From assembly GCA_964421685.1 (NCBI GenBank), contig CAYQXU010000001.1, positions 1 to 41,607 on the forward strand: a stretch of DNA of 41,607 nucleotides, given 5' to 3'. This document shows, one piece after another, positions 5,797 through 23,042 of the stretch (position 1 is the stretch's first letter; every line of letters starts with the position of its first letter). The notes under the pieces were generated by a model. It was not told the DNA's origin. It made no database searches and saw only the letters and a list, made by a program, of their open reading frames with translations. This stretch comes from Candidatus Woesearchaeota archaeon. Lineage in GTDB: Archaea > Nanobdellota > Nanobdellia > Pacearchaeales > GW2011-AR1. The position numbers and the translations under genes were made by a program.

Positions 5797-6453
5797 ATGA
5801 ACCTTTTGAAAAATAAAGACAAAGATCTTTTGGATCTTTATCCTTATGACATCTCCTTTAGGAGAAGGTTTCCAAAACGAACGAGGTTCCCAAATATAAA
5901 AAATATGAAAAAAGCGTATTTGATTCATGGATGGGGAGGAAGTTCTTCCAGCGAGCCATGGCTTCAATGGATTAAGAAAGAACTTGAAAAGAAGAAGTTT
6001 GAAGTTATTTCATTTGACATGCCAAACACTGAAAAGCCTAAGATAGAAGAGTGGGTTAAATATTTGGAGGATCGCATTAAAGATGTTGATGAAAAAACTT
6101 ATTTCATCGGTCATAGCATTGGATGCCAGACAATTTTAAGATTTTTAGAGAAAATTCATAGACATAAGAGAATTGGAGGATGTGTTTTTGTTGCAGGATG
6201 GTTTAATGTTATTAATTTAGAGCCTGAAGAATTAGCGATAGCTCATCCTTGGATGAATACTGGAATTGAATTTGAAAGAGTTTTAGACCACTGCAATAAA
6301 TTTTTAGCTATTTTTTCAGATAATGACCCTTATGTTCATTTAGACGAGGCTGAAAAATTTAAGACTAATTTAGGAGCTAAGATAATAATTAAGAAAGGGC
6401 AAGAACACTTTAATTCCACTGAAAAAATTCCTGAGATTTTGGAGTTTTTGTGA
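5797..6453 (+). CDS. Alpha/beta serine hydrolase, RBBP9/YdeN-like
   Basis: [11 protein letters not shown] and the nucleophile elbow GHSIGC, with a size typical of the YdeN/RBBP9 family. The conserved part begins at the internal ATG at 5905, which is the more likely start. Confidence 0.7.
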
Positions 6454-6936: not shown

Positions 6937-7035
6937 TCAAATCTTCTTCTCTTTTCTTAACTGGTATAGTTTAACTATCAAACCAATTGTTGCAAGAATT
7001 GATAAGTAGGTTAATAAGTAATCTGTAAGAATCAT
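6937..7035 (-). CDS. Possible 32-aa single-TM micro-protein
   Basis: Hand-translated as MILTDYLLTYLSILATIGLIVKLYQLRKEKKI. Its ATG overlaps the TGA of the upstream 72-aa ORF (ATGA), which suggests translational coupling. Confidence 0.3.
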   Translation of the reverse strand: MILTDYLLTYLSILATIGLIVKLYQLRKEKKI

Positions 7036-7250
7036 TTTACATTAGTAAAGATTTTTATTAGTTGTTCTTTGAACAAAAAGCCTATTAATAGAAGCACTAT
7101 TGCTCCAATAATTATTGCAATAATAAACCACCAATTTACATTTAATTTAACCTTTTTATTTGTTTTTCTTAATGGCAATATTGGCTCGAATTTCATTGTC
7201 CCAGGATTAAATTTTGTAGGCAATTGAATTTCTTTTGTTTTCTCATTCAT
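7032..7250 (-). CDS. Small membrane protein
   Basis: 72 aa with one clear TM helix (WWFIIAIIIGAIVLLLIGFLF). It starts 1 nt after the stop of the upstream surface-protein gene. Confidence 0.5.
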   Translation of the reverse strand: MNEKTKEIQLPTKFNPGTMKFEPILPLRKTNKKVKLNVNWWFIIAIIIGAIVLLLIGFLFKEQLIKIFTNVK

Positions 7251-7251
7251 T

Positions 7252-8028
7252 TTATCTTCCTGATTTTTTCCTGTATTGCCTTTCTATTGCTATAAGAATC
7301 ATTGCTCCGAAAATTACAAGAATGAACACATAAACAAATGTGTTGTTTTTTAAGTATGAGAGAACAGCGTCGTCTGAGTTTTGGCTAGGACTTATTCCGC
7401 CTGTTACAGGACTTCGACCTGCGCCAGAATTATCTATTGCCCCAATTGCCTGGCCTGTGCCTGAAAGTGGGACAGAGCCTCTTACTAAGCTTTCTTTACC
7501 GTCATTTACGACAATATTGTAAGTGCCGTCAGGAGCAACTAGCCTGTAGGAAATTTTTTCTCCTGGCTCGAGATTTGGCTGTTTTGTGCCTATTGTCTCG
7601 CCTATTTTTATCGTTATCGTCCTAGAATATTTTGTATTCCCTATGTTTGTTACTGTTAGAGTGCTGCCTTCAAGATCAAATCTAGCCAGCTCCTTGCTTC
7701 CAATGTCGAAAAAAGAGATTGCTTTAATATCCTGATATTGTGCATTAATTACTCCTTGGCCCGATGTTGCTTTATCGCCAAGATCGAGTGTTACAACCTC
7801 CTTAGAGAGCACTGTTTTTTCAATGCTTATTTTTTTCTCAAAGTCTTCAATTGTTACTAAGATATTTCCGTCCATAGGCTTTCCCTGGTCGTCATAAAGC
7901 GTTGCCTTGAATGTTATAGGGGTGCCGGCTTCGAATTCATTTCCATTAGGGAAGTCAATATTAATGGATTTTGCTGACACGAGGGATAATAATACTAAAC
8001 AAAATAAAAATAATGCTAGTTTTTTCAT
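7252..8028 (-). CDS. Secreted, C-terminally anchored surface protein
   Basis: 258 aa. N-terminal signal peptide (MKKLALFLFCLVLLSLVSA), beta-rich ectodomain, Gly/Ser/Pro linker, C-terminal TM (FVYVFILVIFGAMILIAI) followed by a basic tail. Confidence 0.6.
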   Translation of the reverse strand: MKKLALFLFCLVLLSLVSAKSINIDFPNGNEFEAGTPITFKATLYDDQGKPMDGNILVTIEDFEKKISIEKTVLSKEVVTLDLGDKATSGQGVINAQYQDIKAISFFDIGSKELARFDLEGSTLTVTNIGNTKYSRTITIKIGETIGTKQPNLEPGEKISYRLVAPDGTYNIVVNDGKESLVRGSVPLSGTGQAIGAIDNSGAGRSPVTGGISPSQNSDDAVLSYLKNNTFVYVFILVIFGAMILIAIERQYRKKSGR

Positions 8029-8128
8029 GCTTATTTTAAGCTTGAGCCTTATTTAAAAGTTTTTATTATTGCCTGTTTTTACAATAAAGTTTAAATACAC
8101 TTTTTATTTAGTATATTAAGGAGAAAAA

Positions 8129-9514: not shown

Positions 9515-9569
9515 TCTTTTTTTCTTTATACAGAAACTTTTAAATACAATAAATGGTACTTTAAAGTGT

Positions 9570-9806
9570 ATGAAAAAAAGTATTACTAAAAGTCCTTTAA
9601 AAAGTACGGTTAATCGCACTAATATGAAAGGGCAAATATTAAATATTCTTAAAAATTTAGAAAAGCCTCTTTCTACGGCAGAGATAGCACAAAATCTTAA
9701 CAAATCTTGGCATACTATAATAAGGTATTGTTTGGATCTTGAAAACGAGAGTAAATTAATTAAATTTGAGATAGGTCGGATTAGTGCTTGGCAAATTAAA
9801 AAATGA
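9570..9806 (+). CDS. Small winged-helix DNA-binding protein
   Basis: ILNILKNLEKPLSTAEIAQNLNKSWHTIIRYCLDLENESKL fits a wHTH pattern. The likely start is the ATG at 9624. The stop overlaps the next gene's start (ATGA at 9803-9806). Confidence 0.6.
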   Translation: MKKSITKSPLKSTVNRTNMKGQILNILKNLEKPLSTAEIAQNLNKSWHTIIRYCLDLENESKLIKFEIGRISAWQIKK

Positions 9807-12800
9807 AAGAGCAGGTGATAAAAAATGAGAAGCAATTTGCACAATGGTTTAGAAAGAACTACAAAGAATTAGGTTATTCAAAAATAATAAGAGGGGATAT
9901 TTCAAGGTGCCCTGATTTTATAATGTTAAGAAATGGTAAAGAGGTGAGAGTTGAGTTAGAAACAATATCATCTAATTTTATTGCCCATAAACATTCATTA
10001 GATTCTATTGATGAAATTATTTGTTTAATTAAAGATGTTGATTTGGGAAAGCCTACTAGAGAAATTAAAGAGTTAAAATTTGAGGGAAATAGGAAAGTTA
10101 CACTAAGCCTTGATGATAAAGTTTATTCTGACTTTCAGAGATTTTGCGAGGAAAATGCTATTATGCTTTCTAAGAAAATTGAGCTTTTAATGAGAGATCT
10201 GCTGAATAAAAAAAAGAATTTTCTTCTGATGTTTTTTTTAGGAATCTTTTTTATAAGTTTTGTCAGCTCTTCAACAATACTATTTGATGGTTTTGAATCT
10301 GGAGGATTGGCAAATTGGACCCTTTGGAGCAATGCAGGGGCGAACAGCAATTGGACAGCTTCAAGCACTGACCCAAATACAGGAACTTTTCATGCTAATG
10401 GAAATCCAAGAACAACTAATGATCCAGGGATAATAATGAATCAAAGCATTAATACTTCAGGATATAAAAATATTACATTTAGCTATGCAAGAAAACTTAA
10501 TTTAGGAACATCGCTTAAGACATTCAGAGCTAAATGGTATAATGGGACAATTTGGACAATAGTTGAGAATGCAAATAATACAGTAGATTCTGTTTACGTA
10601 AATAAAAATTTCACTTTATCATCCTCTGCAGACAATAACTCAAATTTTAAAATAAGCTTTGATTGTACAGAAGGAACAACAACTGACTATTGTAGAGTTG
10701 ATGATGTTAACATTTCTGGAAATGTAATAGACACAACGCCTCCACAGATTAGCATAACCTATCCTTTAAACTCTTCTTATAATATTAATGTAACTGCGTT
10801 GAATTATACAGCAAGCGACAATTCTGCTTTAGATAAATGCTGGTACAGCTTGAATAATGGAGTTACTAATACAACAATTACATGTGGAAATAATGTAAGC
10901 GGGTTAAGCAGCAACGAGGGAAGCAATACCTGGAAGGTTTGGGCAAACGATACTGCAGGAAATCTCAACTCTTCCAGCAAAACCTTTTTTGTAGACACCA
11001 TAAGCCCTAATATATCTATAATCTCACCTTTGAATCAAACCTTTACTAATGCAACAATACTTGTTAATCTATCTGCATCAGACTCTAATGGAGTTTCTCA
11101 AATTTGGTTTTATAATGGAACGGCAAATGTGAGTTATTCCTCTCCAGCTTATTACACTTTTCCTCAAGGATCTACCACAATTATTGCTTACGCAAATGAC
11201 ACAATAGGAAATCTCAATTCTTCTAATAAAACCTTTTTTGTAGATAGTGTGATTCCGAGCATTGTTATTTATTCTCCACTAAATACAACTTACAACTCAA
11301 GCAGTGTTTTCTTGAATTATTCTGCAAGCGATTCTAGCGGAATAAGCGCTTGCTGGTACTCCAGAGATTCAAATCCTAATATTTCATTGGTTGGCTGTTC
11401 TACAGCAACTCTAACAGGATTTAGTGATGGTAGCCACAATATAAGAGTTTATGCAAACGATACTGCAGGAAATTTAAATTCATCAACTGCTTATTTTTCA
11501 GCGGATTCAACACCTCCATCGTGGAGCGGCGTTCAAAGCTCTACACCTGGAGCTTACTCGGCTCAAGTTTCTTACTTTAATGTTACATGGAATGATTCTT
11601 CTGGAGTATCAAGTGTTTTATTTGAAAGCAATTTTTCAGGATCAAATCAAAATTATTCTATGAGCTTGATTTCTGGAAATGTTTATGGGTTCAATGCAAC
11701 TTTGCCTGCAGGAACATTTTATTGGAAATCTTACGCCAACGACACTCTTGGCAATTTGAATGTAAGTGCTAGCCAAATTTTCACAATTTCTAAAGCATCA
11801 AATCCAGTAGACTTGTATATCAACGGGAATAAAAACCAAAATACAACAGTTTTTTATGGGAATCAAACTAATGTTACAGGAGCAGCATTTTCTGGAGGAA
11901 TTTCTATTTACAAAAATGGAGTTTTAATTTCAAATCCTGAAATAGCTGTTCTAGCTGCAAACTTGTCTGGATATATTTATAATGCAACTAGTGCAGGAAA
12001 CCAGAATTACACAAGCAACTCAACAATAATTTATTTAATTGTTAACAAATCAACTCCAGGATTAAATATGCTCATTAACGGAAATGCAAGCAGCTCAAGC
12101 TTAGTTTATGGGAATGTTTCTAACTTAACTTCTTACGAATTTAATTCAGGAGATGATGATGTTGTGTACACTTTATATCGAGATGGAATTGCAATAGGTT
12201 TAGGATCTTCTGTTCAAGATGTCGGTGTTTTAGGAGTTCAAAATTATACTTATACTTATAATACCTCTGGCGGGAGCAACTATTCAAGCAATTCTTTAGC
12301 AAGAAATTTAGAAATATCAAAGGCTAGCCCTAATGTAACTCTTTTGCTCGATGGATCTAGCTCTGATTTATCAATATCTATAAATGATGTTTTAAATGTG
12401 AGCGCTTCCATTTACTCTCCGTCTACTGGCTCAATTGATCTTTATGAGGACTCTAGCTTAAATTCTTCTGGAACAATTATTTCAATTCAAAAAAACTATA
12501 CTAGCCTAGGAAATAGAGTTTGGAAGACTGTTTTTTTAGGAAACCAGAATTACAGCGCTCAGAACATTTCATATACTGTAAGTGTTATAGATTCTAACTC
12601 GCCGCATTTTTCTAATATCAAGGTTTCGCCAAGCTCACAATCAACTTACTCGCCAAATAGAACTTACCAATTTAATATAACCTGGACAGATGATATTGCT
12701 ATTGACAATGTGATCTTCAGTTTTAATGGAACTAACTATAGCTTTTCATCAGGTCAAGTTAAAAGAAATGCAGATGAATATTATATGAACATTAGCAATT

Positions 12801-14284
12801 TAGGCGCTGGAACTTACGTATACAGATGGTATGCAAACGACACTTCAGGAAACTTAGTAGCAACTTCAAACCAGAATTATATTGTTGACAAAGAAATTGC
12901 TGCATTATTTTTGACAATTGTGCCAAGCAGCAGTGTTGCTTACGGAACTCAAACAAGCGTCAGCTGCTCTGCAAATAACTTTGAATCTTCATTATCGTTG
13001 ACTAGAAATGCAGCTGGTGTTTCAAACCCTGATGTAAATAATTTCTCTGTTGGAACTTATAATTATGCTTGCACTTCTGTTGCTACACAAAATTATACAA
13101 GCGCCAGCGCTACAGCATCTTTACTAGTAAGCAAGGCAGCGCCTGTAATTAATATTAGCTTAAATGGAGTTAGCAGCGACTTGGCCTTACCGTCAAGCGG
13201 CGGTTTAGTTGAAATAAACGCAAGTCTTGTTTCCCCATCTAGTGGGACTATTAATTTATCAATAGATGGAAGCTTTGTTGCGTCTAATAGTTCATTTATC
13301 CATTATACAAATTCATTTTCTTCTTCTGGAACTCATTTAGTCAATGTTTCATTTGATGGAGATGAAAATTATAGTTTTGGATACTCTAATTATAATGTTG
13401 TCGTGGCGTCGCCGTCTTCTAGCGGCAGCAGTTCTGGCGGGTCAAATGGAGGAAGCTCTGTAAAAAGCTTTGTTGTTCAAAAGAAAGCTGATTTATATGT
13501 GGGAAGTATTCCTGCATTGGTGGTTAGCTCGCCAGGCGTAAAGAAAATTGTAAGCTGGGATGTTAAGAATAATGGGTCTAGTTTTTTAAATGACTGCAAA
13601 TTTAAGAGCGCTGGCTCATATGCTTCTTGGATAACTAAGACAGAAACAAAAGGCTTGGCTGCCGGAGAAGAGTATAGTTTTGTTTTTGATGTTAACATAC
13701 CTGAAGAGTCTAAGGAAGGAAAATACCTTATGCATGTATTGCTTGACTGCAGTGAAGTAAGCAAGTCAGCTGACTTTTTTGTTGAGATTCAGGGAAAACA
13801 AGTTGATTTCAAGTTGGTTGATGTTGAAAGAGCTGGCAAAGGAAATGTAAAAGTTAAATATAACATAAGCGAGCTTAAAGGGATAAATCAAAACCTTGAG
13901 CTTCAATTCTTAATCTTTAGTCTTGACAATAAAAAGGAAGCTGAAGTTAAAGAAGCTAAATCAATTCTTGCAAACTCAAGCCAGGAGTTTGAAACCACTA
14001 TTCCTATAAAGGAGACACTCCAAGGCGATCTAAGTTTGCTTGTTAACATTAATTCTGAAACTTATTCTAGTTTTGTTCAGGAAAATATTGTTCTTGGAAG
14101 CCCTGTCAGCGGGTTTACAATATTCGGGGGTTTAGCTAGAAGAGACTCCTTAATAAGCATTTCATTAGTTTTGCTATTTTTTGTATTCGCATTTTTTATT
14201 GTAAAAAGAATAAGAAGCCATCATAGGGTAATCAAAGGAAATCGTCTTAGACAGAAATATGCGTCGATGCTAGCTGCTTATTAA
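9803..14284 (+). CDS. Giant (1493 aa) membrane-anchored surface protein with an N-terminal cytoplasmic PD-(D/E)xK-like plus RHH module
   Basis: aa 1-95: nuclease-fold-like pattern (PDFIML..GKEVRVELE..SSNFIAHKH...DEIICL). aa 97-136: RHH pattern (KVTLSLDDKVYSDFQRFCEENAIMLSKKIELLMRDLL). aa 137-157: KKK plus a hydrophobic segment. The rest is >1250 aa of repeated Ig-like modules dense in N-x-S/T sequons, then a C-terminal TM and basic tail. Confidence 0.8.
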   Translation: MKEQVIKNEKQFAQWFRKNYKELGYSKIIRGDISRCPDFIMLRNGKEVRVELETISSNFIAHKHSLDSIDEIICLIKDVDLGKPTREIKELKFEGNRKVTLSLDDKVYSDFQRFCEENAIMLSKKIELLMRDLLNKKKNFLLMFFLGIFFISFVSSSTILFDGFESGGLANWTLWSNAGANSNWTASSTDPNTGTFHANGNPRTTNDPGIIMNQSINTSGYKNITFSYARKLNLGTSLKTFRAKWYNGTIWTIVENANNTVDSVYVNKNFTLSSSADNNSNFKISFDCTEGTTTDYCRVDDVNISGNVIDTTPPQISITYPLNSSYNINVTALNYTASDNSALDKCWYSLNNGVTNTTITCGNNVSGLSSNEGSNTWKVWANDTAGNLNSSSKTFFVDTISPNISIISPLNQTFTNATILVNLSASDSNGVSQIWFYNGTANVSYSSPAYYTFPQGSTTIIAYANDTIGNLNSSNKTFFVDSVIPSIVIYSPLNTTYNSSSVFLNYSASDSSGISACWYSRDSNPNISLVGCSTATLTGFSDGSHNIRVYANDTAGNLNSSTAYFSADSTPPSWSGVQSSTPGAYSAQVSYFNVTWNDSSGVSSVLFESNFSGSNQNYSMSLISGNVYGFNATLPAGTFYWKSYANDTLGNLNVSASQIFTISKASNPVDLYINGNKNQNTTVFYGNQTNVTGAAFSGGISIYKNGVLISNPEIAVLAANLSGYIYNATSAGNQNYTSNSTIIYLIVNKSTPGLNMLINGNASSSSLVYGNVSNLTSYEFNSGDDDVVYTLYRDGIAIGLGSSVQDVGVLGVQNYTYTYNTSGGSNYSSNSLARNLEISKASPNVTLLLDGSSSDLSISINDVLNVSASIYSPSTGSIDLYEDSSLNSSGTIISIQKNYTSLGNRVWKTVFLGNQNYSAQNISYTVSVIDSNSPHFSNIKVSPSSQSTYSPNRTYQFNITWTDDIAIDNVIFSFNGTNYSFSSGQVKRNADEYYMNISNLGAGTYVYRWYANDTSGNLVATSNQNYIVDKEIAALFLTIVPSSSVAYGTQTSVSCSANNFESSLSLTRNAAGVSNPDVNNFSVGTYNYACTSVATQNYTSASATASLLVSKAAPVINISLNGVSSDLALPSSGGLVEINASLVSPSSGTINLSIDGSFVASNSSFIHYTNSFSSSGTHLVNVSFDGDENYSFGYSNYNVVVASPSSSGSSSGGSNGGSSVKSFVVQKKADLYVGSIPALVVSSPGVKKIVSWDVKNNGSSFLNDCKFKSAGSYASWITKTETKGLAAGEEYSFVFDVNIPEESKEGKYLMHVLLDCSEVSKSADFFVEIQGKQVDFKLVDVERAGKGNVKVKYNISELKGINQNLELQFLIFSLDNKKEAEVKEAKSILANSSQEFETTIPIKETLQGDLSLLVNINSETYSSFVQENIVLGSPVSGFTIFGGLARRDSLISISLVLLFFVFAFFIVKRIRSHHRVIKGNRLRQKYASMLAAY

Positions 14285-14509
14285 CTTTTTCTTTTCATTA
14301 ATTTTTGTTGTTAATTTTTTCTAAAAAACTCAAGTGATAATTAAGAAAGAGATTAGACTTCTGACAGCTCAAACTTTATTTTTTGAACCTTAGAAAGCCT
14401 ATTAGTTATGTTTTCTTCTTCTTGCTCTATTTTTTTCTTTTTATCCCTTAATGAAGATTCTTTTTTTGTTAGTTCTTTAATATTTTCTTTTATCTCTTTG
14501 TCTGTTTTT

Positions 14510-14824
14510 TTATAATCTGCTTTTTTTTCTGTTTAATATTAATATTTCTTTATTAATGTCAGACAAAGCTTCTCTTAGCATACTCTGCTGTTTATTTTTG
14601 GGTTTGTTCATTTTCATTTTTCTTATTCTTTTCTTTGGTTTTTTCAGAATTTTCCTTGCGATTTTGTTTTGCTTAAAGTACCTAGACAGGGCTTCAGATA
14701 TTTCCTTTTTTTCGTATCCGCTTTTGGACAGAATACTTTTTATATCTTTTTCAGAATATTTTTGTTTTATAGCCTCCTTTATCCAATTTTTGAGCTCTTC
14801 ATCCCCATTTTCATTAAAGACCAT
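14510..14824 (-). CDS. Small Lys-rich protein, possibly the 5' part of a frameshifted coiled-coil gene
   Basis: 104-aa ORF. Downstream, an open 59-codon coiled-coil-like frame without an ATG continues to 14353 and is reachable by a 1-nt change in an A8 run. Confidence 0.45.
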   Translation of the reverse strand: MVFNENGDEELKNWIKEAIKQKYSEKDIKSILSKSGYEKKEISEALSRYFKQNKIARKILKKPKKRIRKMKMNKPKNKQQSMLREALSDINKEILILNRKKSRL

Positions 14825-14911
14825 TTAAATTTATAAATGTTCCTTTTATCTTTCCTTATGCGACTTAAATATATTATTTATTTTGGCAGTCTAGTTTCTC
14901 TTAGTTTTAAT

Positions 14912-16747
14912 TTACTCATTTAGCGTTTTCTTTAGCCCCTTTTTAGCTTTTTCATATGAGTCTTTAGATATATATTTTCCCAAATAAGCTCTTTCCAGGG
15001 CTTCTAGCTTATTTTTTATTTTTTTTACATTCTTATCTTTTTCGATAATTTTTTTTCTTTCTTCTTCTATATTTTCCGATCTTTCGTCAACTTTTTTCTT
15101 GTATGATGAAATGTCTTCTCTTATTTTTTTCTGCCCACGCCTTAAAATGACAGCTATTATCAATAAAACTAAGACAATTGATCCTATTAGGATAAGCATA
15201 AGATATAGCAAAGATGAGCCTTTAACTCCTGATTCTTTTTCTGTTTTGACAATAATTGAAAAGCTGCTGCTTGCACTCTTGCCTTCATAATCAACTTTTA
15301 CGTATATTATGTATTGTCCGCCGTCCATATTTTTCGGCAATTTTATTAATTTAACATAATTTATCTGACCGTCAACTGCTAAGCTTTCTGTGGCTGAAGT
15401 TATTATATCTCCATAAATGCTTACTATTCTATATTCTATATCAACATCAACTTTTTTATGAACATCTGCTACTTCAAATATTCTTACGTTTAAGAGAATC
15501 TCATCGCCCGGGGAAACTATGGAAAATTGTGTTGGTACTTTTATTTCAACATCAAATAAAGCACTATCTGACTCAACTTCAACTGCCGTTAAAATTTCTT
15601 CTTTTTCACCTCCTGATTCAACTATTATCTTTCCAACATATAAGCTAGGTATAGTGCTTTCTTTTGCTATGAAGTCTATTGTAATTTCTTTTTCTTCTCC
15701 AGGCTTTAGAGTGAATTCTTTTTCATTTATTATCGTGATCTCTTCTATTTTTTGAGCACTTATTTTAATTTTCGTTTCTTCATTTCTTGCATTCTTTACT
15801 TTTATGATTTCTGATTTAATTTGCCCTTGTTTTAAGGACACTTTTATTTCTTTTTTATCTAAGGAAAATATGCTTGGCGTTGCTGGAGAACTTGACCCGC
15901 CCCCACTTGTAATCTTTCCTGTGCCTGATGAAGCTGGAGCCTCTTCTGCAGAATAAACTGAGAAGCCTGTTACATTGAATATTAATGCTCCTCCTGAATA
16001 GCTTTGCTGTGTGCATATTGATGAAGAGCAAACTTCCCCATCTTTTAAGATTCTTGGATTGGTGAAATTTAAATTGTATAAAGTTAAGGTTGCTGGCTTG
16101 TTGAAGTTTGGAAGCTCTGTGGAGTTTATTTCTATTCTGTTATCGGAAATTTTGACACCGTAGCTTAAATTAACTTGATTATCATTGTTGTTAAGATCAT
16201 TTGTCACATTTATTGCCTGATTAAATAATATTTTTCCATAGTTAGTATTTTCTAAAATTATGTTGCTCAAGTTTTGAATATCTTCATAGCTTGAAATGTT
16301 GAAGTTGTTTGAAATACCGCTGTTTGAGCCTGCAAATTCTTCGTAATAAATTGTGAATTTAGACAGGTTTACAAAGAAGCTTACATTTTTTGCTGTAAGG
16401 CCGTAGCTATTGTTAGCGTATAAATATAAAGTATGGTTACCTGAGGTTGTGTTAAAGTAAGTTGAAGAGGCAATTGTGGTGTTTGCAGAATCGTCTATGT
16501 TATAGACTATGGAACTTGCGTAACGAGAGGTGAAGTTTAATAAGAGAGAGTTGTTGTTAAAGTAAGTGTCATTTCTAGGGCTTATTAAGGTTAATTCCGG
16601 GGGCCCTGTAAGAGTTATGTTTATAGCAACATTTTGCGCTGTTGACTCTCCTGTTATTTTTTTTGGATTTGTATTGACTTTTATTAATGAGAATAAAACT
16701 ATTATTAATATAAAAATTCCAAGCAAGAAAAATAACCTCTTATTCAT
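14912..16747 (-). CDS. Surface protein (611 aa) with C-terminal TM and cytoplasmic coiled-coil/SHOCT-like tail
   Basis: N-terminal signal/anchor, sequon-rich ectodomain, CARDB/DUF11-like modules (LKPGEEKEITIDFIAKE...), TM (LLYLMLILIGSIVLVLLIIAVIL), and the tail LEALERAYLGKYISKDSYEKAKKGL. Confidence 0.7.
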   Translation of the reverse strand: MNKRLFFLLGIFILIIVLFSLIKVNTNPKKITGESTAQNVAINITLTGPPELTLISPRNDTYFNNNSLLLNFTSRYASSIVYNIDDSANTTIASSTYFNTTSGNHTLYLYANNSYGLTAKNVSFFVNLSKFTIYYEEFAGSNSGISNNFNISSYEDIQNLSNIILENTNYGKILFNQAINVTNDLNNNDNQVNLSYGVKISDNRIEINSTELPNFNKPATLTLYNLNFTNPRILKDGEVCSSSICTQQSYSGGALIFNVTGFSVYSAEEAPASSGTGKITSGGGSSSPATPSIFSLDKKEIKVSLKQGQIKSEIIKVKNARNEETKIKISAQKIEEITIINEKEFTLKPGEEKEITIDFIAKESTIPSLYVGKIIVESGGEKEEILTAVEVESDSALFDVEIKVPTQFSIVSPGDEILLNVRIFEVADVHKKVDVDIEYRIVSIYGDIITSATESLAVDGQINYVKLIKLPKNMDGGQYIIYVKVDYEGKSASSSFSIIVKTEKESGVKGSSLLYLMLILIGSIVLVLLIIAVILRRGQKKIREDISSYKKKVDERSENIEEERKKIIEKDKNVKKIKNKLEALERAYLGKYISKDSYEKAKKGLKKTLNE

Positions 16748-16781
16748 AATTAAGATAATTATTAGGTCTATTTAAAATTTG

Positions 16782-17387
16782 TTAGTATTTTACTTTCTTT
16801 AAGGAAGCTTGCTTTTTACTGTTTTCTTCTTTAGACCTTTTTACATACCATATTATTATAGATATTGCCACAATTGCTATTATAATGATAATCATTATGC
16901 TTATAGGGAAGGTCTTTTTGGCTGCTCCAGCAGAAGGAGAAGGCTCTTCTTTTTTACTTACTATTTTGACAGGTATTTTGCTAGTAAATCCGCTAGATAC
17001 TTCTAACATTCCTCCTCCATTAGTAGAAACTTGTTTGAATGAGACCATTATTTGATCTATTGAACCTATTTCTTTGTCTGCTGGAATGTCTATTTTAACT
17101 TTTACAGTAACATTTTCTGTGCCAAATGGAACCTCATACAACAAGTCATTGTCGTCTATTATTTGGGCTATTTCACTTCCAGCAGTAATGTTAGCATTTA
17201 TAGTTATATCTTGAGGTTCACCTGCCATGTTTTGTAGATATAACGTAACTGTACTTGACTCTCCAGGGGTCAGTTCTAAGTATCCACTTTTAAAATAAGG
17301 AGTTACCACTCCTGACGCATTTGTAAATGATATAAGTGCTACTAAAATAATAAACAAGATTGCTATTTTGTATTTTATTTTTTCCAT
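16782..17387 (-). CDS. Small anchored surface protein
   Basis: Start taken at MEKIKYK (17387). Signal/anchor, one beta-sandwich-like domain (LTPGESSTVTLYLQN...), C-terminal TM and Lys-rich tail. Confidence 0.65.
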   Translation of the reverse strand: MEKIKYKIAILFIILVALISFTNASGVVTPYFKSGYLELTPGESSTVTLYLQNMAGEPQDITINANITAGSEIAQIIDDNDLLYEVPFGTENVTVKVKIDIPADKEIGSIDQIMVSFKQVSTNGGGMLEVSSGFTSKIPVKIVSKKEEPSPSAGAAKKTFPISIMIIIIIAIVAISIIIWYVKRSKEENSKKQASLKKVKY

Positions 17388-17392
17388 TTTTG

Positions 17393-18313
17393 TTATATTA
17401 CCGCAACATTCCACGATCCGTATGCGGAAGATGAATATGACTGCTGGCTTAGGCTTGAAGGCAGTCCTGTAAGACAGAAGTATAAATTTTGCTGTCCTGA
17501 TGTAAAGTTTCCGTAGTTTAATGAATTATTCCCTCTTTGAAGCAATGCTGAGGTTATGTTTTTGGAGGTTGCATTAGCCATTGTTGTTCCTGAACAGCCT
17601 TGAGATATATTCTGAACACTGAAGTTTGCAGCATAAATAAATTCAGTGAGAGTTGTTTCTCCTCTTAAATCGTAAGCTGTAACATTAGTGTCGACAACTT
17701 CATCATTTCCTGTGTTATTTATTATTATTGGATCATTGTTTGAGCCTGTATTTGTAGTTGAAGCAGTTATTGTTGTCCATGTTAATGCTGTAGGACTCAT
17801 AACCATTGATGTAAGTGTGTTATATGTGAATGTTGTTGATGAGTTTTCTGCATAGCTTCCGCTATTGTCTTTTATTGTTGCATTAATTGTCCATGCTGCA
17901 GGCTTGTCGAAATATTGCATTGAAATTGTGCATGTAAAATTAATGTTGTTTCCAACACCTATAGATGTATTTATGCAGGAAGTGTTTGATCTCGTTGTTT
18001 CACCTGAAAATTGAAAGTAAGCTTTAGCAGAGCTTAAATTAATGTTTGAACTTCCATCTACATCATTTGCTGTATAGTTGAATGTTATTGCCTTTGTTGA
18101 AGATTCTGTTGGATTTTGCGATGAAATTGCATTAACAATAGTTACTGTTGGGGCTGTGTTTCCAATTGTTATATTTAAAGAAGCTGTACCTGAAGTTGCC
18201 TTACCTGTTATTTTTGGACTTTTGAAAAAATCAAAAATCCCTGCAGATACAAATGTAGTTATAATTATTCCGACTATGACTATCATAAAAAGAACATAAA
18301 CCTCCTTTCTCAT
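17393..18313 (-). CDS. Secreted 306-aa paralog of the membrane-proximal ectodomain of the 1521-aa protein
   Basis: Own signal peptide. aa about 55-306 align with aa about 1080-1330 of the ORF at 18352..22917, including DNA blocks with 100% identity. Ends at ...YGSWNVAVI without an anchor. Confidence 0.7.
   Translation of the reverse strand: MRKEVYVLFMIVIVGIIITTFVSAGIFDFFKSPKITGKATSGTASLNITIGNTAPTVTIVNAISSQNPTESSTKAITFNYTANDVDGSSNINLSSAKAYFQFSGETTRSNTSCINTSIGVGNNINFTCTISMQYFDKPAAWTINATIKDNSGSYAENSSTTFTYNTLTSMVMSPTALTWTTITASTTNTGSNNDPIIINNTGNDEVVDTNVTAYDLRGETTLTEFIYAANFSVQNISQGCSGTTMANATSKNITSALLQRGNNSLNYGNFTSGQQNLYFCLTGLPSSLSQQSYSSSAYGSWNVAVI
17411..18155. repeat. Direct repeat, copy A (partner at 18934-19675)
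   Basis: Mosaic similarity. Exact blocks at 17418-17566 = 18941-19089 (149 bp) and 17790-17944 = 19313-19467 (155 bp) are separated by diverged patches. Confidence 0.9.
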
Positions 18314-18351
18314 TTTAAAGATAGCACTTAGCCATTTTTAAATATTATTGT

Positions 18352-21300
18352 TCATTTTTTTACTGCTTTTTTGTATATGCTTCCTATATTTCTCTGGTCT
18401 CTTTCAACTAACGACGATATTTCTGAATATTTAAGGCCCTTTTCTTTTAGATGAACAACTATTGATTCTAGTATTGTCAGCTTTCTATTCTTGAATATTT
18501 CTATCGGCAGGGTGTAGCCTTTTTCTTTTATCATTAAAGGATCTTTCTTCTTTTCATAAGCTTTCTTGTAGGCTGTCCATATTGTTCTTTCATCTCTCAA
18601 CAATTGCTTTGAAATTTCCCTATAGTTCATTCCAAGGTTTTCCTTCATGTATTTAACTAAAGATTCTAGCGCTCCTAGTTCTTTTGTGAATATAGACACT
18701 GGGATATTCTTTTGCTTCATTTCTATTATTTCTGCAATCTCTTTTTCACTCAAGCCATATCTTTCTTTCATTTCCTTGATTATTATTTCCAGCAGCTCTT
18801 TTTTATCAAGTGTATATTTTTCTTTTAGCTCGTCCATAATTAACCCTAAAGCCTTGACAAGTCTGTCTTCCTTGATCCCTTTCTTTTTCTTTCTTGATTT
18901 AGGAATTATAAGAGCGAGAAGCACTGTTACACTCCACGACCCGTATGCGGAAGATGAATATGACTGCTGGCTTAGGCTTGAAGGCAGTCCTGTAAGACAG
19001 AAGTATAAATTTTGCTGTCCTGATGTAAAGTTTCCGTAGTTTAATGAATTATTCCCTCTTTGAAGCAATGCTGAGGTTATGTTTTTGGATGTTGCATTAG
19101 CCATTGTTGTTCCAGAACAGCCTTGGGATATATTCTGGATGCTGAAATTTGCAGCATAAATAAATTCTGTTGTAGTTGTTTCCCCCCTTAAATTATAAGC
19201 TGTGACATTTGTATCAAGAACTTCATCATTTCCTGTGTTATTTATCAAGATAGGGTCATTATTGGAGCCTACATTCGTCTGCCATGTAACAATCTGATCC
19301 CATCCTAGCGACGTAGGACTCATAACCATTGATGTAAGTGTGTTATATGTGAATGTTGTTGATGAGTTTTCTGCATAGCTTCCGCTATTGTCTTTTATTG
19401 TTGCATTAATTGTCCATGCTGCAGGCTTGTCGAAATATTGCATTGAAATTGTGCATGTAAAATTAATATCATTGCCGACTGGGACAGAGGTATTTATGCA
19501 GCTTGTGTTCTGTCTTGTTGTTTCACCTGAAAATTGAAAGTAAGCTGCTGCAGTGCTGATATTGATTGTAGAGCCGCCGTTTGCATCTGTTGCTGTGAAG
19601 TTGAATGTTATTGCCTTTGTTGAAGATTCTGTTGGATTTTGCGCAGAGATTGCGTTAACTGCTCCTATTGTTGGAGCTACTTGGCTGATTATGTTGACAA
19701 CATAGGAATTATTTAATCCTAAATTTCCTGCGCTGTCATTAACGTACACATTTATTGTTCTATTTCCATCTGCAAGACTTGTCAAGGGGATTGATGTTGT
19801 GTTACACCAACCATTGGATACAGATAGAGTTGTATTTGTTCCATTTACTTCAATACTACATGAAACAGGTAAGGTTGTCACATCAGTTGCAGAAATGTTT
19901 AGTGTTAGAGTAGCTGTATTTTGTTTTTGAGTTGCGTTAGTATAGGCAGGCAGAGTTATTGTAGGTGCAGTCGTATCTACAATAAATGTCCTGTTTGCTG
20001 ACGTGAATGCAGAATTTCCCACAGTATCATTTCCCCAAGCAGCCCAAACGTATTTTCCATCGGAAATGCTTGCTACTGTGACGTTCCACCATGAATTATT
20101 TAATGGAGTTGCGTTTGTCTGATTTGCTATCCAACTCCCACTCCAATTTCCATAGAGTGCTAAATAGTTAACTGCCACATTATCTGCTATTTTTAGATCA
20201 AAAGTAACTGATTTTGAACTTGAATTGTAATTGTCTACGGGATTTGTTCCAAAAGTTAGATTTGGGGCTACTGCGTCAACTATTATTGTCCTATTGCTTG
20301 ACCAACCCTCGCCCCCAGAAGAATCATTACACCTTATTCCCCAAATAAAACTTGAGTTAGATAAACCACTTGTTGATAGATTATACCATGTAGCGTTAGT
20401 TGGAGAAGATTGGGTTGTTTTTGCTGCCCATGTTCCTGTGTCGTTTGTCCATATTTCCAAAGCTGATAATGTGGAATCTATGTCGTCAGTACACTTAGCA
20501 TCAAATACAGCTGTTGTACTAGCAGTAGTGTTTGCATTAGCAGGATTTGTTCCAAGAGCAGCTATTGGATTTAAATCTACTTTAGTTACATTGAGCTGTG
20601 AATTATTTCCTGAAGAATTAAATAAAACATATCCTCGATAAGTACCATTATACCATAACTCAGTTCCAATGAAATGTCCAGCGGGAAGCAGGTATCCTGA
20701 AGAATTTGAACAACCTGTGGAATTGCTTCTGTATGTTGGAGCAATTTGATTACAATTAAAACTAAGTGGACTCGAGCAAATTTGTGCTTTTGTTCCACAA
20801 GCTGAGTCAGTACAGTCAAGTACACGATATAGATTTATGTAACGGTCTTTTGTTAAAGTACTGTTTGATGCATTGCACCAGATACCTATTGGGAAAGCTC
20901 CAGAGAGATTTGTGTTTACTGCGAAAGAACTGCTAATAAAATACACAGATTGATTTCCGGTGGCAACCCAATCAGCAACCGCCGATCCTGTTGAAGTACC
21001 TAAAGACTGATTAGACACATTTCCTGAAGAAGATATTCCTCTGAAATAATAAGTTGTTAAAACGTTTGTTGGATCGACAATGTGATCAATTTCAACACTT
21101 CCTCCGACAACTTTTAAATCAAATGTCTCTTGGCTGTTTTGCAAGCTTGTTAAAAGAACTTTGTTGTATTGATTATCTTGGATGTTTGTGAATTCTGCTA
21201 TTTTTGTACTCGAGTCTTTTTCATAAACTTCTATTTTTGGCGAGCCACTTATTTTTCTTGGATAAATGGTTATATCATTTGAAGATGTAAGATTTTTTTC

Positions 21301-22917
21301 GAAAGTTACTCTTACGTAATCTTGGTTTGGAATAGTTTCGCTCCAAATTCCATCAAGTTTTTTCACTTCTTCGTAAATATCTGAGAGGAAGTTTTTATCT
21401 TTATCTAAGTGTTCGGCCTTTGTAATAACTATAATTTCAAATGTCTGGTTGCTTAAGCTAGGGACGAGCCATTCTATATAGTCATAAATTCCGTTGCTGT
21501 CTTTATCTTGCACAGAGCTTGGAGATAGATAAGTATTTTGCTCTATCCAATGAATTTTTATTCTTGAGGGATCTTTTAATTTAAGAGATTCTGGCAGATT
21601 TGTGAATGCAAGAACATTTGTGTAGTGGATTCCATCTGGAGAAGAAATCTTTATTCTTTTCCCTCTTGAAATTGTTTCTTCTAAAACTGATGGGGCAGGG
21701 GTTTCGTATTCTAATTCATATATGGAAGAAGAATCCCCTATAGAAATTTCAAGAACAGATGGTCCGGATTGGGAAGGACTCATTTCTTTCTCCGAGACAT
21801 CTGCTTTGATTTCCTTCAATTTTATTTTTTGAGCATCTTTAGGAATTGATATTTTTGTTTTGCCTGTTTTTTTTGGCGTAATTGTTTGCTTCCACTTTAC
21901 ACTTTCTCCTATTTTTCCAGGAAGCTGTATTGTTGTTATATTAAAATCTTGAGTCATGTTTTCTGCTGTTTCATTAACGTTTGTTATGTTGGTTTCTGTT
22001 ATGTTTCTTGGAGGAGTTATTGTTATATTTGTAATGTTTTCTTCTGGTGCTATTTCAGGCACTTTTGGCTTTTCTATGATAATTCCATAGTTTATCCTAT
22101 GAATTTTTAGTACTGTTCCAGCCCCTCCACCATCACCCCGACCACCCACCCCTTCATTCGAAATTTCAATCTTTATATTGTAAGATGACTTATTTAACAA
22201 AAGAGATTCTATATTGCATGTTTCTTCGCAGATATTGGAGAAATTAATGATTTTTATTTGCGAAGGAATTTCCTCACTTGCATTTGTTGCATTTGAAGAA
22301 GTGCCGAAAAACGATTCTTGAATTGCTCCTTGCTTTGAGTTTGGAAAAATTGAACTATCTAAAATTAAGATTTTATCAAGGTAAACTTTAACGATTCCTT
22401 CCCCTTTAATTAGACCATCAATATTGACATAACTTAAATTTCCTTGATTTTCAAGTTTCCATTCATAAGTTGTTGAGTCATTAGTTTCTATGTTTATTTC
22501 TTGAAAAAATTCTTGCTTCTCAATGCTAATTTCAGGAGCTCTCCCTTCTGAAACTAAAAATCCAGTGAGTTTTATGTTTGCTAGTTGAGAGAAAGCGAAT
22601 GTGAGTGCGATTAAAATTATTGAGAAAATTAATATGTTTATTGTGTGATTTTTAATTATGTGTTTTTTATGTTTTTTTATTTCAATTTCACACTCTTTTA
22701 TGTGATTATCATAGTGATTAATGTATTCATGAATATTTTTTCCATCGTGCTTTTTATGATGTGTTTCAATAAAATTAGCATATGTAATTTGTTTTTTATG
22801 ATAAGCATGATGTAGGTTTTCTAAGTAATTCTGGAGATGTTTTTTTCTAATATTTGCTTCTTTAATTTGCTCTTTGAGCTGGGCTATAGAAGCTTTTGCT
22901 AAGCGAGTCCTTTTCAT
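18352..22917 (-). CDS. Giant (1521 aa) two-TM surface protein with His-rich N-terminal and tandem-HTH C-terminal cytoplasmic domains
   Basis: aa 1-92: His/Lys-rich. TM at aa 93-112. About 1200 aa of sequon-rich ectodomain with Ig-like modules. A short hydrophobic segment (VTVLLALIIP) plus KSRKKKKG. A 182-aa tail with two Tfx/LuxR/sigma-r4-like HTH repeats. Confidence 0.8.
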   Translation of the reverse strand: MKRTRLAKASIAQLKEQIKEANIRKKHLQNYLENLHHAYHKKQITYANFIETHHKKHDGKNIHEYINHYDNHIKECEIEIKKHKKHIIKNHTINILIFSIILIALTFAFSQLANIKLTGFLVSEGRAPEISIEKQEFFQEINIETNDSTTYEWKLENQGNLSYVNIDGLIKGEGIVKVYLDKILILDSSIFPNSKQGAIQESFFGTSSNATNASEEIPSQIKIINFSNICEETCNIESLLLNKSSYNIKIEISNEGVGGRGDGGGAGTVLKIHRINYGIIIEKPKVPEIAPEENITNITITPPRNITETNITNVNETAENMTQDFNITTIQLPGKIGESVKWKQTITPKKTGKTKISIPKDAQKIKLKEIKADVSEKEMSPSQSGPSVLEISIGDSSSIYELEYETPAPSVLEETISRGKRIKISSPDGIHYTNVLAFTNLPESLKLKDPSRIKIHWIEQNTYLSPSSVQDKDSNGIYDYIEWLVPSLSNQTFEIIVITKAEHLDKDKNFLSDIYEEVKKLDGIWSETIPNQDYVRVTFEKNLTSSNDITIYPRKISGSPKIEVYEKDSSTKIAEFTNIQDNQYNKVLLTSLQNSQETFDLKVVGGSVEIDHIVDPTNVLTTYYFRGISSSGNVSNQSLGTSTGSAVADWVATGNQSVYFISSSFAVNTNLSGAFPIGIWCNASNSTLTKDRYINLYRVLDCTDSACGTKAQICSSPLSFNCNQIAPTYRSNSTGCSNSSGYLLPAGHFIGTELWYNGTYRGYVLFNSSGNNSQLNVTKVDLNPIAALGTNPANANTTASTTAVFDAKCTDDIDSTLSALEIWTNDTGTWAAKTTQSSPTNATWYNLSTSGLSNSSFIWGIRCNDSSGGEGWSSNRTIIVDAVAPNLTFGTNPVDNYNSSSKSVTFDLKIADNVAVNYLALYGNWSGSWIANQTNATPLNNSWWNVTVASISDGKYVWAAWGNDTVGNSAFTSANRTFIVDTTAPTITLPAYTNATQKQNTATLTLNISATDVTTLPVSCSIEVNGTNTTLSVSNGWCNTTSIPLTSLADGNRTINVYVNDSAGNLGLNNSYVVNIISQVAPTIGAVNAISAQNPTESSTKAITFNFTATDANGGSTINISTAAAYFQFSGETTRQNTSCINTSVPVGNDINFTCTISMQYFDKPAAWTINATIKDNSGSYAENSSTTFTYNTLTSMVMSPTSLGWDQIVTWQTNVGSNNDPILINNTGNDEVLDTNVTAYNLRGETTTTEFIYAANFSIQNISQGCSGTTMANATSKNITSALLQRGNNSLNYGNFTSGQQNLYFCLTGLPSSLSQQSYSSSAYGSWSVTVLLALIIPKSRKKKKGIKEDRLVKALGLIMDELKEKYTLDKKELLEIIIKEMKERYGLSEKEIAEIIEMKQKNIPVSIFTKELGALESLVKYMKENLGMNYREISKQLLRDERTIWTAYKKAYEKKKDPLMIKEKGYTLPIEIFKNRKLTILESIVVHLKEKGLKYSEISSLVERDQRNIGSIYKKAVKK
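18934..19675. repeat. Direct repeat, copy B (partner at 17411-18155)
   Basis: See copy A. Same orientation, offset about 1.5 kb. Confidence 0.9.
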
Positions 22918-23042
22918 ACTTATTATTTATGTATTTATATTTATAAATATATGTAAAAATATAAAAAGTACTTATTATTAATGTATAGAGGCTTTTGTGG
23001 TAGCTAAGAAAGATTTATAATGTTTTGTAGTTACTAATTGTC

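Follow-up and report, generated by a model that had tools for sequence, protein, structure and literature searches.

Organisation of the locus

We analysed a 41,607-nt stretch of archaeal DNA (contig CAYQXU010000001.1 of assembly GCA_964421685.1, hereafter the window), and in particular its region 7032-22917, which holds nine open reading frames (ORFs) and, at 9570-9806 on the plus strand, a 78-aa winged helix-turn-helix (wHTH) gene. An earlier reading made from the letters alone (the sequence-only reading) had described this region as a single surface-protein island of about 16 kb, whose two giant proteins, g1493 and g1521, carry cytoplasmic DNA-binding modules. The ORFs that it listed are all present, and Kyte-Doolittle hydropathy gives every one of them a signal peptide and/or an anchor, apart from the wHTH gene and the small Lys-rich g104, as had been claimed. 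Its guess of a DPANN origin was also right, the contig being a Candidatus Pacearchaeota metagenome-assembled genome (MAG) sequence with locus tags HY212_03200-03230, from a tiny archaeon that is probably a symbiont. The single island does not hold: synteny in related loci resolves it into two independently conserved cassettes, A and B, plus some extra genes. To judge from these comparisons, A and B are unrelated, individually conserved surface-protein cassettes of Pacearchaeota and Woesearchaeota.

Cassette B (g1521, g306, g210, g611 and g104; 14510-22986, minus strand) has intergenic gaps of 5-87 nt and recurs across Pacearchaeota and Woesearchaeota. Its first gene encodes a giant membrane protein ending in two helix-turn-helix (HTH) repeats, which may be a membrane-tethered regulator of its own operon. 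The genes of the cassette and the parts of the giant, which include transmembrane (TM) and immunoglobulin-like (Ig) segments, are:

18352..22917, minus strand: g1521, giant membrane protein made of an N-domain, a TM segment, an Ig ectodomain rich in N-x-S/T sequons, a short hydrophobic-polybasic element, a linker and two HTHs
22642..22917, minus strand: g1521 residues 1-92, helical N-domain, predicted cytoplasmic (profile of the domain)
22579..22641, minus strand: g1521 residues 93-113, sole canonical TM segment, a signal anchor with positive N-flank, predicted N-in (Kyte-Doolittle hydropathy, KD19, of 2.41)
18937..22578, minus strand: g1521 residues 114-1327, ectodomain of Big_3_4/Big_13-type Ig repeats (Pfam)
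18880..18936, minus strand: junction element WSVTVLLALIIPKSRKKKK, g1521 residues 1328-1346, candidate non-canonical stop-transfer or membrane-crossing segment
18550..18708, minus strand: HTH repeat A, g1521 residues ~1404-1456, sigma-70 region 4/LuxR type (PF08281; pLDDT above 90)
18355..18513, minus strand: HTH repeat B, g1521 residues ~1469-1521, same fold as repeat A (PF08281, AlphaFold2, Foldseek)
17393..18313, minus strand: g306, secreted protein paralogous to the domain that closes the g1521 ectodomain (BLAST)
16782..17387, minus strand: g210, signal peptide, beta-rich domain and C-terminal TM anchor; position conserved
14912..16747, minus strand: g611, signal peptide, Ig repeats, an ASH/Cep192-like Ig domain, TM segment and charged coiled-coil tail (hydropathy, Pfam)
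14510..14824, minus strand: g104, small Lys-rich cytoplasmic protein, last gene of the cassette, with positional counterparts in related loci

The C-terminal HTH pair

Two HTH repeats had been proposed at the C-terminus of g1521, and they prove to be a genuine Sigma70_r4_2 pair. The isolated tail (last 182 residues) matches PF08281 in three stretches with an E-value of 1.7e-9 (37.6 bits against a cut-off of 25.7), and the whole protein still scores 26.7 bits, above the gathering score. In the AlphaFold2 (AF2) model the tail forms two HTH units with pLDDT above 90. Local Foldseek alignments match them to region 4 of SigE on -35 DNA, of SigR and of SigL and to RcsB (probability 0.97-1.0; root-mean-square deviation, rmsd, 0.7-2.1 Å), and also to the archaeal transcription factor 8hnp; global Foldseek E-values are not significant for this multidomain model, and only the local matches, labelled weak, were used. 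Repeat B shares 33% identity over 42 aa with residues 14-51 of 8hnp (rmsd 0.7 Å). The recognition-helix residues of the repeats read RDxRTIWT and RDQRNIWT.

The protein is not a bacterial sigma-70 factor, since its 1521 aa contain region-4 matches only and no region 2; TIGR02937 reaches just 20.1 bits (cut-off 42.9), confined to the last 36 residues. Membership in Tfx can likewise be discarded (NCBIfam Tfx model, 17.7 bits against a cut-off of 60).

Spread and conservation of the fusion

An exhaustive search of 1.84 billion representative proteins with the HTH tail (E<=1e-3) returned a family of 2022 representative proteins. Among the best 150 relatives, 67 are at least 1000 aa long (1000-5919 aa), and the HTH module stands at the extreme C-terminus among the matches listed; 62 of the 67 also possess the junction motif described below. 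In species-representative genomes we found 341 HTH-tail loci, the best 80 of which belong nearly all to Nanoarchaeota, Woesearchaeota or Pacearchaeota. Junction and HTH lie in one uninterrupted ORF in 63 of these 80 species-level loci, and most of the 80 keep the gene order giant-g306-g210-g611, with g306 directly downstream of the giant, often with a gene for a ProRS-type synthetase divergent upstream and a g1493-like gene convergent downstream. The fusion of g1521 to a DNA-binding module is retained in dozens of species-level genomes and is not an artefact.

The N-domain is conserved as well. Its family was recovered from the long matches of the exhaustive search and has the consensus MGRTRLAKA..ISY..Y..DGRT..EWI.YYD.YI..C; the profile matches the extreme N-terminus of 50 of the 67 HTH-tailed giants, and most of those that it misses have been called without their full N-terminus, or have one that is short or different. 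A scan of 31 N-domains against Pfam gave no family common to more than two members, a PDB profile search gave no significant match (the best, at E 0.11, is unrelated), and the first 189 aa of g1521 drew no matches in a word-index homology search. A single canonical TM segment near residue ~90 is found in nearly all relatives, and the body of these giants is rich in sequons, as in g1521.

At three loci (L012, L014 and L015) the HTH repeats make up a separate protein without a hydrophobic segment, whose gene lies directly upstream of the giant gene and overlaps its start. The L012 giant, the only split-form giant whose C-terminus was read, stops right after its last beta-strand and has no hydrophobic or polybasic element, while the L014 giant has just a 14-aa N-terminus ahead of its TM segment and is still paired with an HTH gene. 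Many more free-standing versions exist, of 300-370 aa with three or four repeats and no signal peptide. This alternation of fused and split genes links the HTH module to the giant. A miniature member, P0228 (346 aa), consists of the N-domain, a TM segment and ~85 extracellular residues followed by SWTITAIMSLALIRISSKRKKK and two HTHs, and could be a natural minimal construct for work on topology and DNA binding. Full archaeal cassettes are also found on contigs of MAGs labelled Patescibacteria, Bacillota or 'bacterium' (L017, L022, L026 and L090), which are probably mis-binned DPANN contigs.

Two departures from the fused form deserve attention. In a Woesearchaeota MAG (L011, the same as L025) an in-frame TAA at about 8000-8020 (..EKYSLNNK*TTEVIV..) separates the HTH tail from a 1400-aa giant; a near-identical ENA assembly sequence (P0008) has GAA (E) at this position, and the stop is either a natural fission in progress or an error. 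The other is the GenBank version of our own contig, JACQCI010000067.1 (L013, 41653 nt), which is missing 57 nt (window 18880-18936, encoding AYGSWSVTVLLALIIPKSR) and 68 nt at the g306/g210 boundary (window 17388-17455), and is accordingly annotated with a 1502-aa giant lacking the hydrophobic element and a 487-aa g306-g210 fusion. Each indel coincides exactly with the 3' end of one copy of a 716-nt repeat (two copies, 87% identical, in g306 and g1521), and the differences are probably an assembly artefact at the repeat in the GenBank version. Gaps of undetermined bases do not account for the 1502-aa and 487-aa annotations, as the GenBank contig contains no Ns.

A box pair at the promoter of the giant

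For 32 giants the fetched DNA includes the start of the N-domain, and when their upstream 200 nt were aligned an 18-bp box emerged, ATACATAHATAATAAGTA (ATACAT-A-H-ATAATAAGTA; as a pattern, TACAYNNWTRRTARGTA), present as a direct-repeat pair that flanks the TATA box of the giant. In the window the promoter elements are:

22917..22934, minus strand: proximal 18-bp box ATACATAAATAATAAGTA, downstream of the TATA box and ahead of the predicted leaderless start, its last base being the A of the g1521 ATG
22941..22947, minus strand: TATA-like TTTATAA, -30 to -24 from the ATG
22969..22986, minus strand: distal 18-bp box ATACATTAATAATAAGTA, 52 bp upstream of the proximal copy

At up to three mismatches the box occurs twice in the 41.6-kb window, both times at the g1521 promoter, against 0.26 occurrences expected. 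The degenerate pattern has matches in 31 of the 96 fetched loci, and every match checked was a giant promoter, always in the orientation of the gene. The spacing is 51-52 bp in 18 relatives, and positions are fixed: the distal box at about -70, the TATA box at -31/-30 (in about 25 relatives) and the proximal box from -18 into the ATG. The two copies also co-vary within genomes (Hamming distance 1.58 against 2.05, P 0.005). At split-form loci it is the HTH gene whose promoter carries repeated boxes, related or different.

With the TATA box in this position, the mRNA should be leaderless. Archaeal repressors act between the TATA box and the start, and activators act upstream of the TFB-recognition element (BRE) and the TATA box; given a leaderless start, the proximal box would occupy a repressor position and the distal box an activator position. 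The HTH pair of the giant is the obvious candidate to bind the boxes, and a box pair exclusive to giant promoters would point to autoregulation, giving the supposed transcriptional role of the giant a concrete form. A common regulon for the whole region can be dismissed, the box being present neither upstream of cassette A nor upstream of any other gene of the window.

In 14 related loci (one of them L011, at 3691-3700 and 3721-3730) the stretch separating the 18-bp boxes from the divergent ProRS-type synthetase gene contains a second conserved repeat pair, two copies of TAGGCACTAC spaced 30-33 nt apart around a TTTAAAT-like box. The window has diverged copies, TTTTGTGGTAGCTAA and TTTTGTAGTTACTAA, at 22993-23007 and 23023-23037. 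The pair may belong to the giant's promoter as an additional element, or may serve the synthetase gene as its operator or promoter.

The junction element

Between ectodomain and HTH tail the relatives share a junction of the form ..YST..G-W-x-I-[RK]-I, followed by 8-12 uncharged residues and then by five to nine K/R, the distance from W to the polybasic cluster having a median of 13 aa over about 100 relatives. The sequence-only reading had predicted a two-TM hairpin in g1521, which standard hydropathy does not give: there is one canonical TM segment, the N-terminal one, and the supposed second, W1328-P1339 (WSVTVLLALIIP), fails hydropathy criteria. It comprises 12 residues followed by KSRKKKK and stays below the KD19 threshold of 1.6, against 2.85-3.42 for the bona fide anchors of the locus. 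Comparison with the terminus of g306 (..SWNVAVI*) shows that SWSVTV, within this segment, forms the last beta-strand of the Ig domain. KD19 at the junction is below 1.6 in about 90% of the relatives and 1.6-2.2, the hydropathy of a canonical TM segment, in about 10%. The AF2 model of g1521 has pLDDT below 50 here and no helix. An archaeosortase/PGF-CTERM sorting signal is excluded, since the element is not C-terminal and ~175 residues with two folded HTHs follow the basic cluster.

Cassette A

Cassette A lies on the plus strand and contains the second giant, g1493. Its features are:

9570..9806, plus strand: wHTH78, small winged-helix protein, first gene of the cassette, whose stop overlaps the next ATG (ATGA)
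9803..10219, plus strand: PD-(D/E)xK-like plus ribbon-helix-helix (RHH) module, residues 1-139 of the 1493-aa ORF, free-standing in relatives
10208..10215, plus strand: A8 run (lysine codons) at the fusion point of g1493
10190..14284, plus strand: surface protein proper of the cassette, from the internal M130, opening MRDLLNKKKNFLLMFFLGIFFISFVSSS, a canonical signal peptide

The N-terminus of g1493 that had been read as RHH and nuclease-like folds confidently, with weak database signals, and its fusion to the giant is there in the sequence and peculiar to this genome. All 31 homologues of the module stand alone, with lengths of 134-162 aa and an end at query residue ~137-140 (..LLNKKK), and the claim that both giants carry cytoplasmic DNA-binding modules does not generalise. 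In the four independent contexts examined (L001, L003, L005 and L007) the small gene is translationally coupled to the giant gene, overlapping the start of a gene for a secreted protein of 647 to more than 2300 aa. The gene preceding it is a homologue of wHTH78 in L001, L003 and L007, and in L005 its place is taken by a stand-alone 51-aa copy of the RHH (5849-6004).

The first 139 aa of g1493 are modelled by AF2 with a pLDDT of 89.9 as a helix, four strands, a helix and a strand. Foldseek similarity to Hjc and Bax1 is weak and below significance (probability 0.4-0.7, E at least 0.14), as is a PDB profile match to 8gy8 over the PDF..VE stretch (E 0.12). Invariant residues of the family are E9, D38 (at least 90%), E51, E53, H62, H64 and D70, with ELE in place of ExK. 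The invariant motif SNFxxHxH...(V)DE stands beside E9, PD38 and E51-L-E53, without the canonical lysine, and the family may represent a distinct PD-(D/E)xK subfamily with metal-dependent enzyme activity. The RHH-like segment is composed of KVTLSL and two helices (105-117 and 122-138 in the AF2 model), with weak matches to SvtR (2kel, E 0.068) and Pfam DUF6364 (E 0.038). Two relatives, P0086 and P0087, have a C-terminal wHTH resembling wHTH78 in place of the RHH, and the three small modules (nuclease-like, RHH and wHTH) are shuffled among themselves.

At the fusion point the present sequence reads ..LLNKKKNFLLMFF... With A7 instead of A8, the ORF would end as a 141-aa small protein (..NKKRIFF*) at a TGA overlapping the ATG (TGATG) that opens MFFLGIFFISFVSSS... 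Two hydrophobic segments are present in g1493 (140-158 and 1449-1467), and the first of them is a signal peptide in relatives; the signal peptide opened by M130 aligns with those of the related giants, which start there. Beyond it come the head domain, Big_7-type Ig repeats, membrane-proximal Ig modules, the TM segment 1449-1467 and a basic tail. A Shine-Dalgarno (SD) analysis of internal initiation at M130 or M144 was uninformative, as about 8 of the 34 window genes have an SD-like motif.

Two sources, NCBI and a Logan assembly, record the identical 1493-aa ORF, which is probably a real consensus sequence and at the same time a lineage-specific read-through. Ancestrally, cassette A would consist of three translationally coupled genes, for a wHTH protein, a PD-(D/E)xK-like/RHH protein and a giant adhesin, the second and third of which would here have been joined in frame at the A8 run. 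The 'cytoplasmic DNA-binding N-terminus' of g1493 would thus be a local read-through and not a designed feature. The general rule in this cassette seems to be small DNA-binding proteins co-transcribed with the adhesin gene, and not an adhesin with a DNA-binding end.

Upstream of wHTH78, a TTTAAATAC box at about -31 is followed by the tandem 12-mers ACAATAAATGGT and ACTTTAAAGTGT, which run into the ATG (window 9536-9569). At about 5765-5800 of L003, the TTTAAATAC box is followed by two copies of ACTATTAAATGT into an ATG, which suggests that the wHTH gene of L003 starts at this internal ATG (MKKSMSKS). Such an arrangement looks like a leaderless promoter with its own operator.

Interpretation and alternatives

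The best overall explanation, in which our confidence is about evenly divided, is that cassette B encodes a membrane-tethered autoregulator and that g1493 of cassette A is a read-through. Cassette B would be an operon whose first product, the giant membrane protein, doubles as the operon's own transcription factor. A cytoplasmic N-domain and the one canonical TM segment would put the sequon-rich Ig ectodomain outside the cell, and the W-x-I-[RK]-I stretch with its polybasic cluster would serve as an unusually short stop-transfer that leaves the last ~175 residues (a helical linker and the two HTHs) presumably in the cytoplasm. The tethered HTH pair would bind the two 18-bp boxes around the TATA box of the giant's leaderless promoter, and the giant at the membrane would feed back through its amount or its state, with whatever sign and in response to whatever signal, on transcription of the giant and the three accessory surface proteins.

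Several observations weigh against this explanation. The junction is too short and too polar for a canonical TM segment (usually with R/K at +3), and standard criteria do not predict a cytoplasmic tail. The L011 stop makes the covalent link between HTH and giant dispensable in at least one strain. An alternative assembly lacks the 57 nt of the junction element, although conservation of the junction across the family favours the version in the window. Another factor could bind the 18-bp boxes, and the related loci were picked via the HTH tail itself, with no negative set. Finally, the occurrence of the 1493-aa ORF in two sources means that its fusion may be real and expressed.

We estimate that the tail is cytoplasmic with a likelihood of roughly two in three, and four features favour that side: the HTH proteins of L012, L014 and L015 stand free without any hydrophobic segment; the free-standing three- and four-repeat versions have no signal peptide; a polybasic cluster follows the hydrophobic stretch in all members, with canonical TM hydropathy in about 10%; and the tail contains no sequons, against 5.4 per 100 aa in the ectodomain. 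The opposite arrangement would leave the whole chain after residue 113 outside the cell, with the junction element and HTH pair at the distal tip of a stalk, where they could bind extracellular or host DNA or insert in the host membrane or, in the extreme version, deliver the HTH into the host. Hydropathy by the standard measure does give no second TM segment in g1521 or in about 90% of its relatives, AF2 models no helix at the junction, and a hydrophobic stretch with a polybasic cluster is also what membrane-active peptides have. Set against this, free-standing HTH modules without a signal peptide must be cytoplasmic, the element accompanies the fused forms and is missing from the split giant of L012, as a re-entry element predicts, clusters of five to nine K/R resist Sec translocation (the positive-inside rule), and a promoter-specific box pair exists. 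We regard an extracellular tail as improbable.

Somewhat less improbable, and in our opinion still unlikely, is an anti-sigma-like arrangement in which the N-domain silences the sigma-4-like HTH, in cis when fused and in trans when split, until a change in the ectodomain (host contact, shedding or proteolysis) frees the HTH to act on the boxes. An N-domain, a TM segment and an extracellular sensor, the first of them found in 50 of the 67 tailed giants, is the layout of an anti-sigma factor, and the split HTH gene directly upstream, overlapping the giant's start, recalls sigma/anti-sigma operons. Woesearchaeota have also been reported to possess genes classified as sigma-70 for which no anti-sigma partner was identified (Castelle et al. 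2021, PMC8204110). Yet the N-domain resembles neither an anti-sigma domain nor any other known family in Pfam or the PDB, the L014 giant pairs with its HTH gene in spite of a 14-aa N-terminus, and there is no protease gene in cassette B. By far the least probable reading is that the fusions are artefacts or decaying genes, in which frameshifts, lost stops or mis-assembly joined ordinary small regulators to their neighbours. Such a reading draws on g1493, unique among 31 homologues and joined in an A8 run where one base less restores the two-gene layout, on the 57-nt and 68-nt indels that distinguish the two public contig versions at the ends of the g306/g1521 repeat, and on the in-frame stop within the L011 tail. 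It has to contend with an identical 1493-aa ORF in both the NCBI and the Logan assemblies and, for g1521, with contiguity in 63 of 80 independent species-level assemblies and 62 of 67 long representatives and with a conserved junction motif; for the g1521 fusion these comparisons have already refuted it.

Returning to the tethered autoregulator, autoregulation of the cassette is no worse a fit to the evidence than the outside-in contact sensing, or the tethering of DNA at a contact site, that the sequence-only reading had put forward and that are purely conjectural. Host-contact sensing or proteolytic release is possible and compatible with the data, at the price of an extra assumption, and nothing measured indicates either. 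Stretched furthest, the proposal is of an adhesin-transcription-factor family, present at least throughout the Pacearchaeota/Woesearchaeota branch of DPANN, in which one polypeptide runs from the host-facing surface to the chromosome through an ultra-short re-entry and binds its own operator pair, so that attachment is read as expression; this we regard as doubtful, though less so than the alternatives above. If true, attachment of an episymbiont to its host would be converted directly into gene expression, with no kinase or second messenger.

Accessory proteins and other features of the region

Sharing of modules among the ectodomains, as claimed in the sequence-only reading for the Ig-like repeats and a common head domain, is borne out by all-against-all BLAST. 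Residues 159-304 of g1493 and 313-458 of g461 are 44.6% identical (E 7e-34) and constitute the common head domain. Ig repeats are common to g1493, g1521 and g611 (g1493 366-637 aligns with g1521 850-1148 at 27% identity, and g1493 402-481 with g611 50-127), with Pfam matches of the Ig type such as Big_7 (E 4e-11) and Big_3_4 (E 1.9e-8). Residues 1077-1333 of g1521 are 85.6% identical to residues 50-306 of g306, a duplication of the last ectodomain domain, and g306 ends exactly at the final beta-strand (..GSWNVAVI*).

The CARDB-like modules of the same reading do not survive: CARDB is not among the Pfam matches at E<=0.1, and the corresponding region of g611 matches Cep192_D3 instead (29.4 bits, cut-off 27), along with ASH/HYDIN-type Ig domains, leaving a generic Ig-like beta-sandwich, an interpretation that stands. 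Nor is there support for a SHOCT-like motif (LE.L..AY) common to the g611 tail and the g1521 N-terminus, which give no BLAST alignment at E<=100 and no Pfam match to SHOCT at E<=1. The extreme richness in sequons holds for g1493 (z 8.3 over composition-matched shuffles), g1521 (66 sequons in the ectodomain, z 9.0), g306 (z 2.5) and the N-terminal half of g611 (z 3.0), whose distal parts have about twice the frequency predicted from composition; it does not hold for g258, g461, g210 or the membrane-proximal modules.

The position of g611 is conserved in related loci at 35-52% identity, whereas its tail is not, the L011 counterpart stopping right after the TM segment. The start of g210 is likely the ATG at 17387 (MEKIKYK..). 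Positional counterparts of g104 in L008, L011 and L012 are 90-103 aa long, with no detectable sequence conservation. Outside the coordinates of both cassettes are:

7032..8028, minus strand: at the edge of the region, g258, which has a signal peptide, an Ig-like domain and a TM anchor, and g72, a small protein with one TM segment
8129..9514, plus strand: g461, secreted, with a C-terminal head domain like that of g1493 (BLAST, Pfam)

No counterparts of g258 or g72 were found in the related loci examined. Besides its head domain of the g1493 type, which is present four times in the L007 giant, g461 has an acidic double-disulfide repeat (NF033662, E 7e-7) and, at residues ~82-145, a weak region resembling class-I glutamine amidotransferases and BPL_N. 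The region is flanked by housekeeping genes: TFB, tRNAs, a class II (ProRS-type) aminoacyl-tRNA synthetase, LeuRS, a tRNA-intron endonuclease and glycolysis genes. A Fic/DOC-domain protein (E 1.7e-20) at 34743-35681, among genes of glycolysis and sugar metabolism, is unrelated to the cassettes. We also considered an origin from a defence system or a phage and discarded it, as PADLOC and PHROGs scans of the small proteins and the g1521 tail gave generic wHTH/HTH similarity only.

Significance and comparison with known systems

How DPANN archaea sense their hosts and keep hold of them, with such tiny genomes and so few regulators, is a standing question, and no function is predicted for the majority of the membrane proteins specific to their lineages. 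What the present finding adds is a large protein architecture and an operon, both sharply conserved in Pacearchaeota and Woesearchaeota, and, for that operon, a concrete candidate for a regulatory circuit, a sigma-4-like HTH pair and a pair of 18-bp boxes at fixed positions around the TATA box. It also poses a membrane puzzle, because either a stretch of 9-13 residues with a polybasic cluster recrosses the archaeal membrane, or the cell exposes a DNA-binding module on its outside, and each of the two would be new. The circuit is accessible without cultivation, with the purified 180-residue tail and a 90-bp promoter fragment. The result for g1521 is less exotic than a single 16-kb contact-sensing island and, for the one giant, much better founded.

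Membrane-tethered transcription factors are already known (ToxR/CadC; ArnR, PMC6396743), and it is the arrangement of giant adhesin and HTH that is apparently undescribed. Full-text literature searches gave no description of a giant adhesin with a C-terminal sigma-4-like HTH pair, N-domain, ultra-short junction, accessory cassette or box pair. Bacterial ToxR, CadC and TcpP are like g1521 in joining a membrane-tethered DNA-binding domain to an extracytoplasmic domain in one polypeptide, with no kinase and in connection with surface or virulence genes. They have an N-terminal OmpR-type winged helix, one canonical TM segment and a small periplasmic sensor, whereas in g1521 the HTH is of the sigma-70-r4/LuxR type, duplicated and C-terminal, the N-domain is cytoplasmic, the only canonical TM segment is N-terminal, and an Ig-repeat ectodomain of more than 1200 aa is followed by a putative return segment of 9-13 residues; there is no sequence relationship.

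Among archaeal proteins, ArnR carries its HTH at the N-terminus and its TM helices at the C-terminus, and it has no large ectodomain. ArnR and ArnR1 of Sulfolobus acidocaldarius are described as membrane-bound one-component regulators (PMC6396743), which control surface-structure genes by binding a specific promoter. The giant would resemble ArnR in being a membrane-anchored archaeal transcription factor; ArnR is of a different HTH family and phylum. Regulators of the Tfx/8hnp type share the HTH fold of g1521, but are small and soluble and have one HTH.

The SPEARE proteins of Nanohaloarchaeota are giant, repeat-rich surface proteins of host-dependent archaea with a presumed role in attachment. 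We liken g1521 to these giants by description, not by homology, for both are very large, repeat-rich and extracellular; we know of no DNA-binding tail, conserved N-domain or promoter boxes described for them. For the small protein of cassette A, the comparison is with Hjc/Bax1 and SvtR, as its predicted structure has an alpha-beta core with PD...ExE acidic residues followed by a strand and two helices. It differs from Hjc/Bax1 in that ELE replaces the canonical lysine and that SNFxxHxH...VDE is specific to the family, and the similarity is below significance.

The closing comparison is with sigma/anti-sigma pairs of the extracytoplasmic function (ECF) type that have extracellular sensing, such as SigI-RsgI of Clostridium thermocellum. 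As in such pairs, a region-4-type HTH is partnered in the giant family with an N-domain, a TM segment and large extracellular modules, and the split HTH gene is upstream and coupled. The giant family differs from ECF sigma/anti-sigma pairs in having no region 2, an N-domain unlike anti-sigma domains and partners that are mostly one polypeptide, and archaea use TBP/TFB. The giant family may also account for the Woesearchaeota 'sigma-70 genes without anti-sigma factors'.

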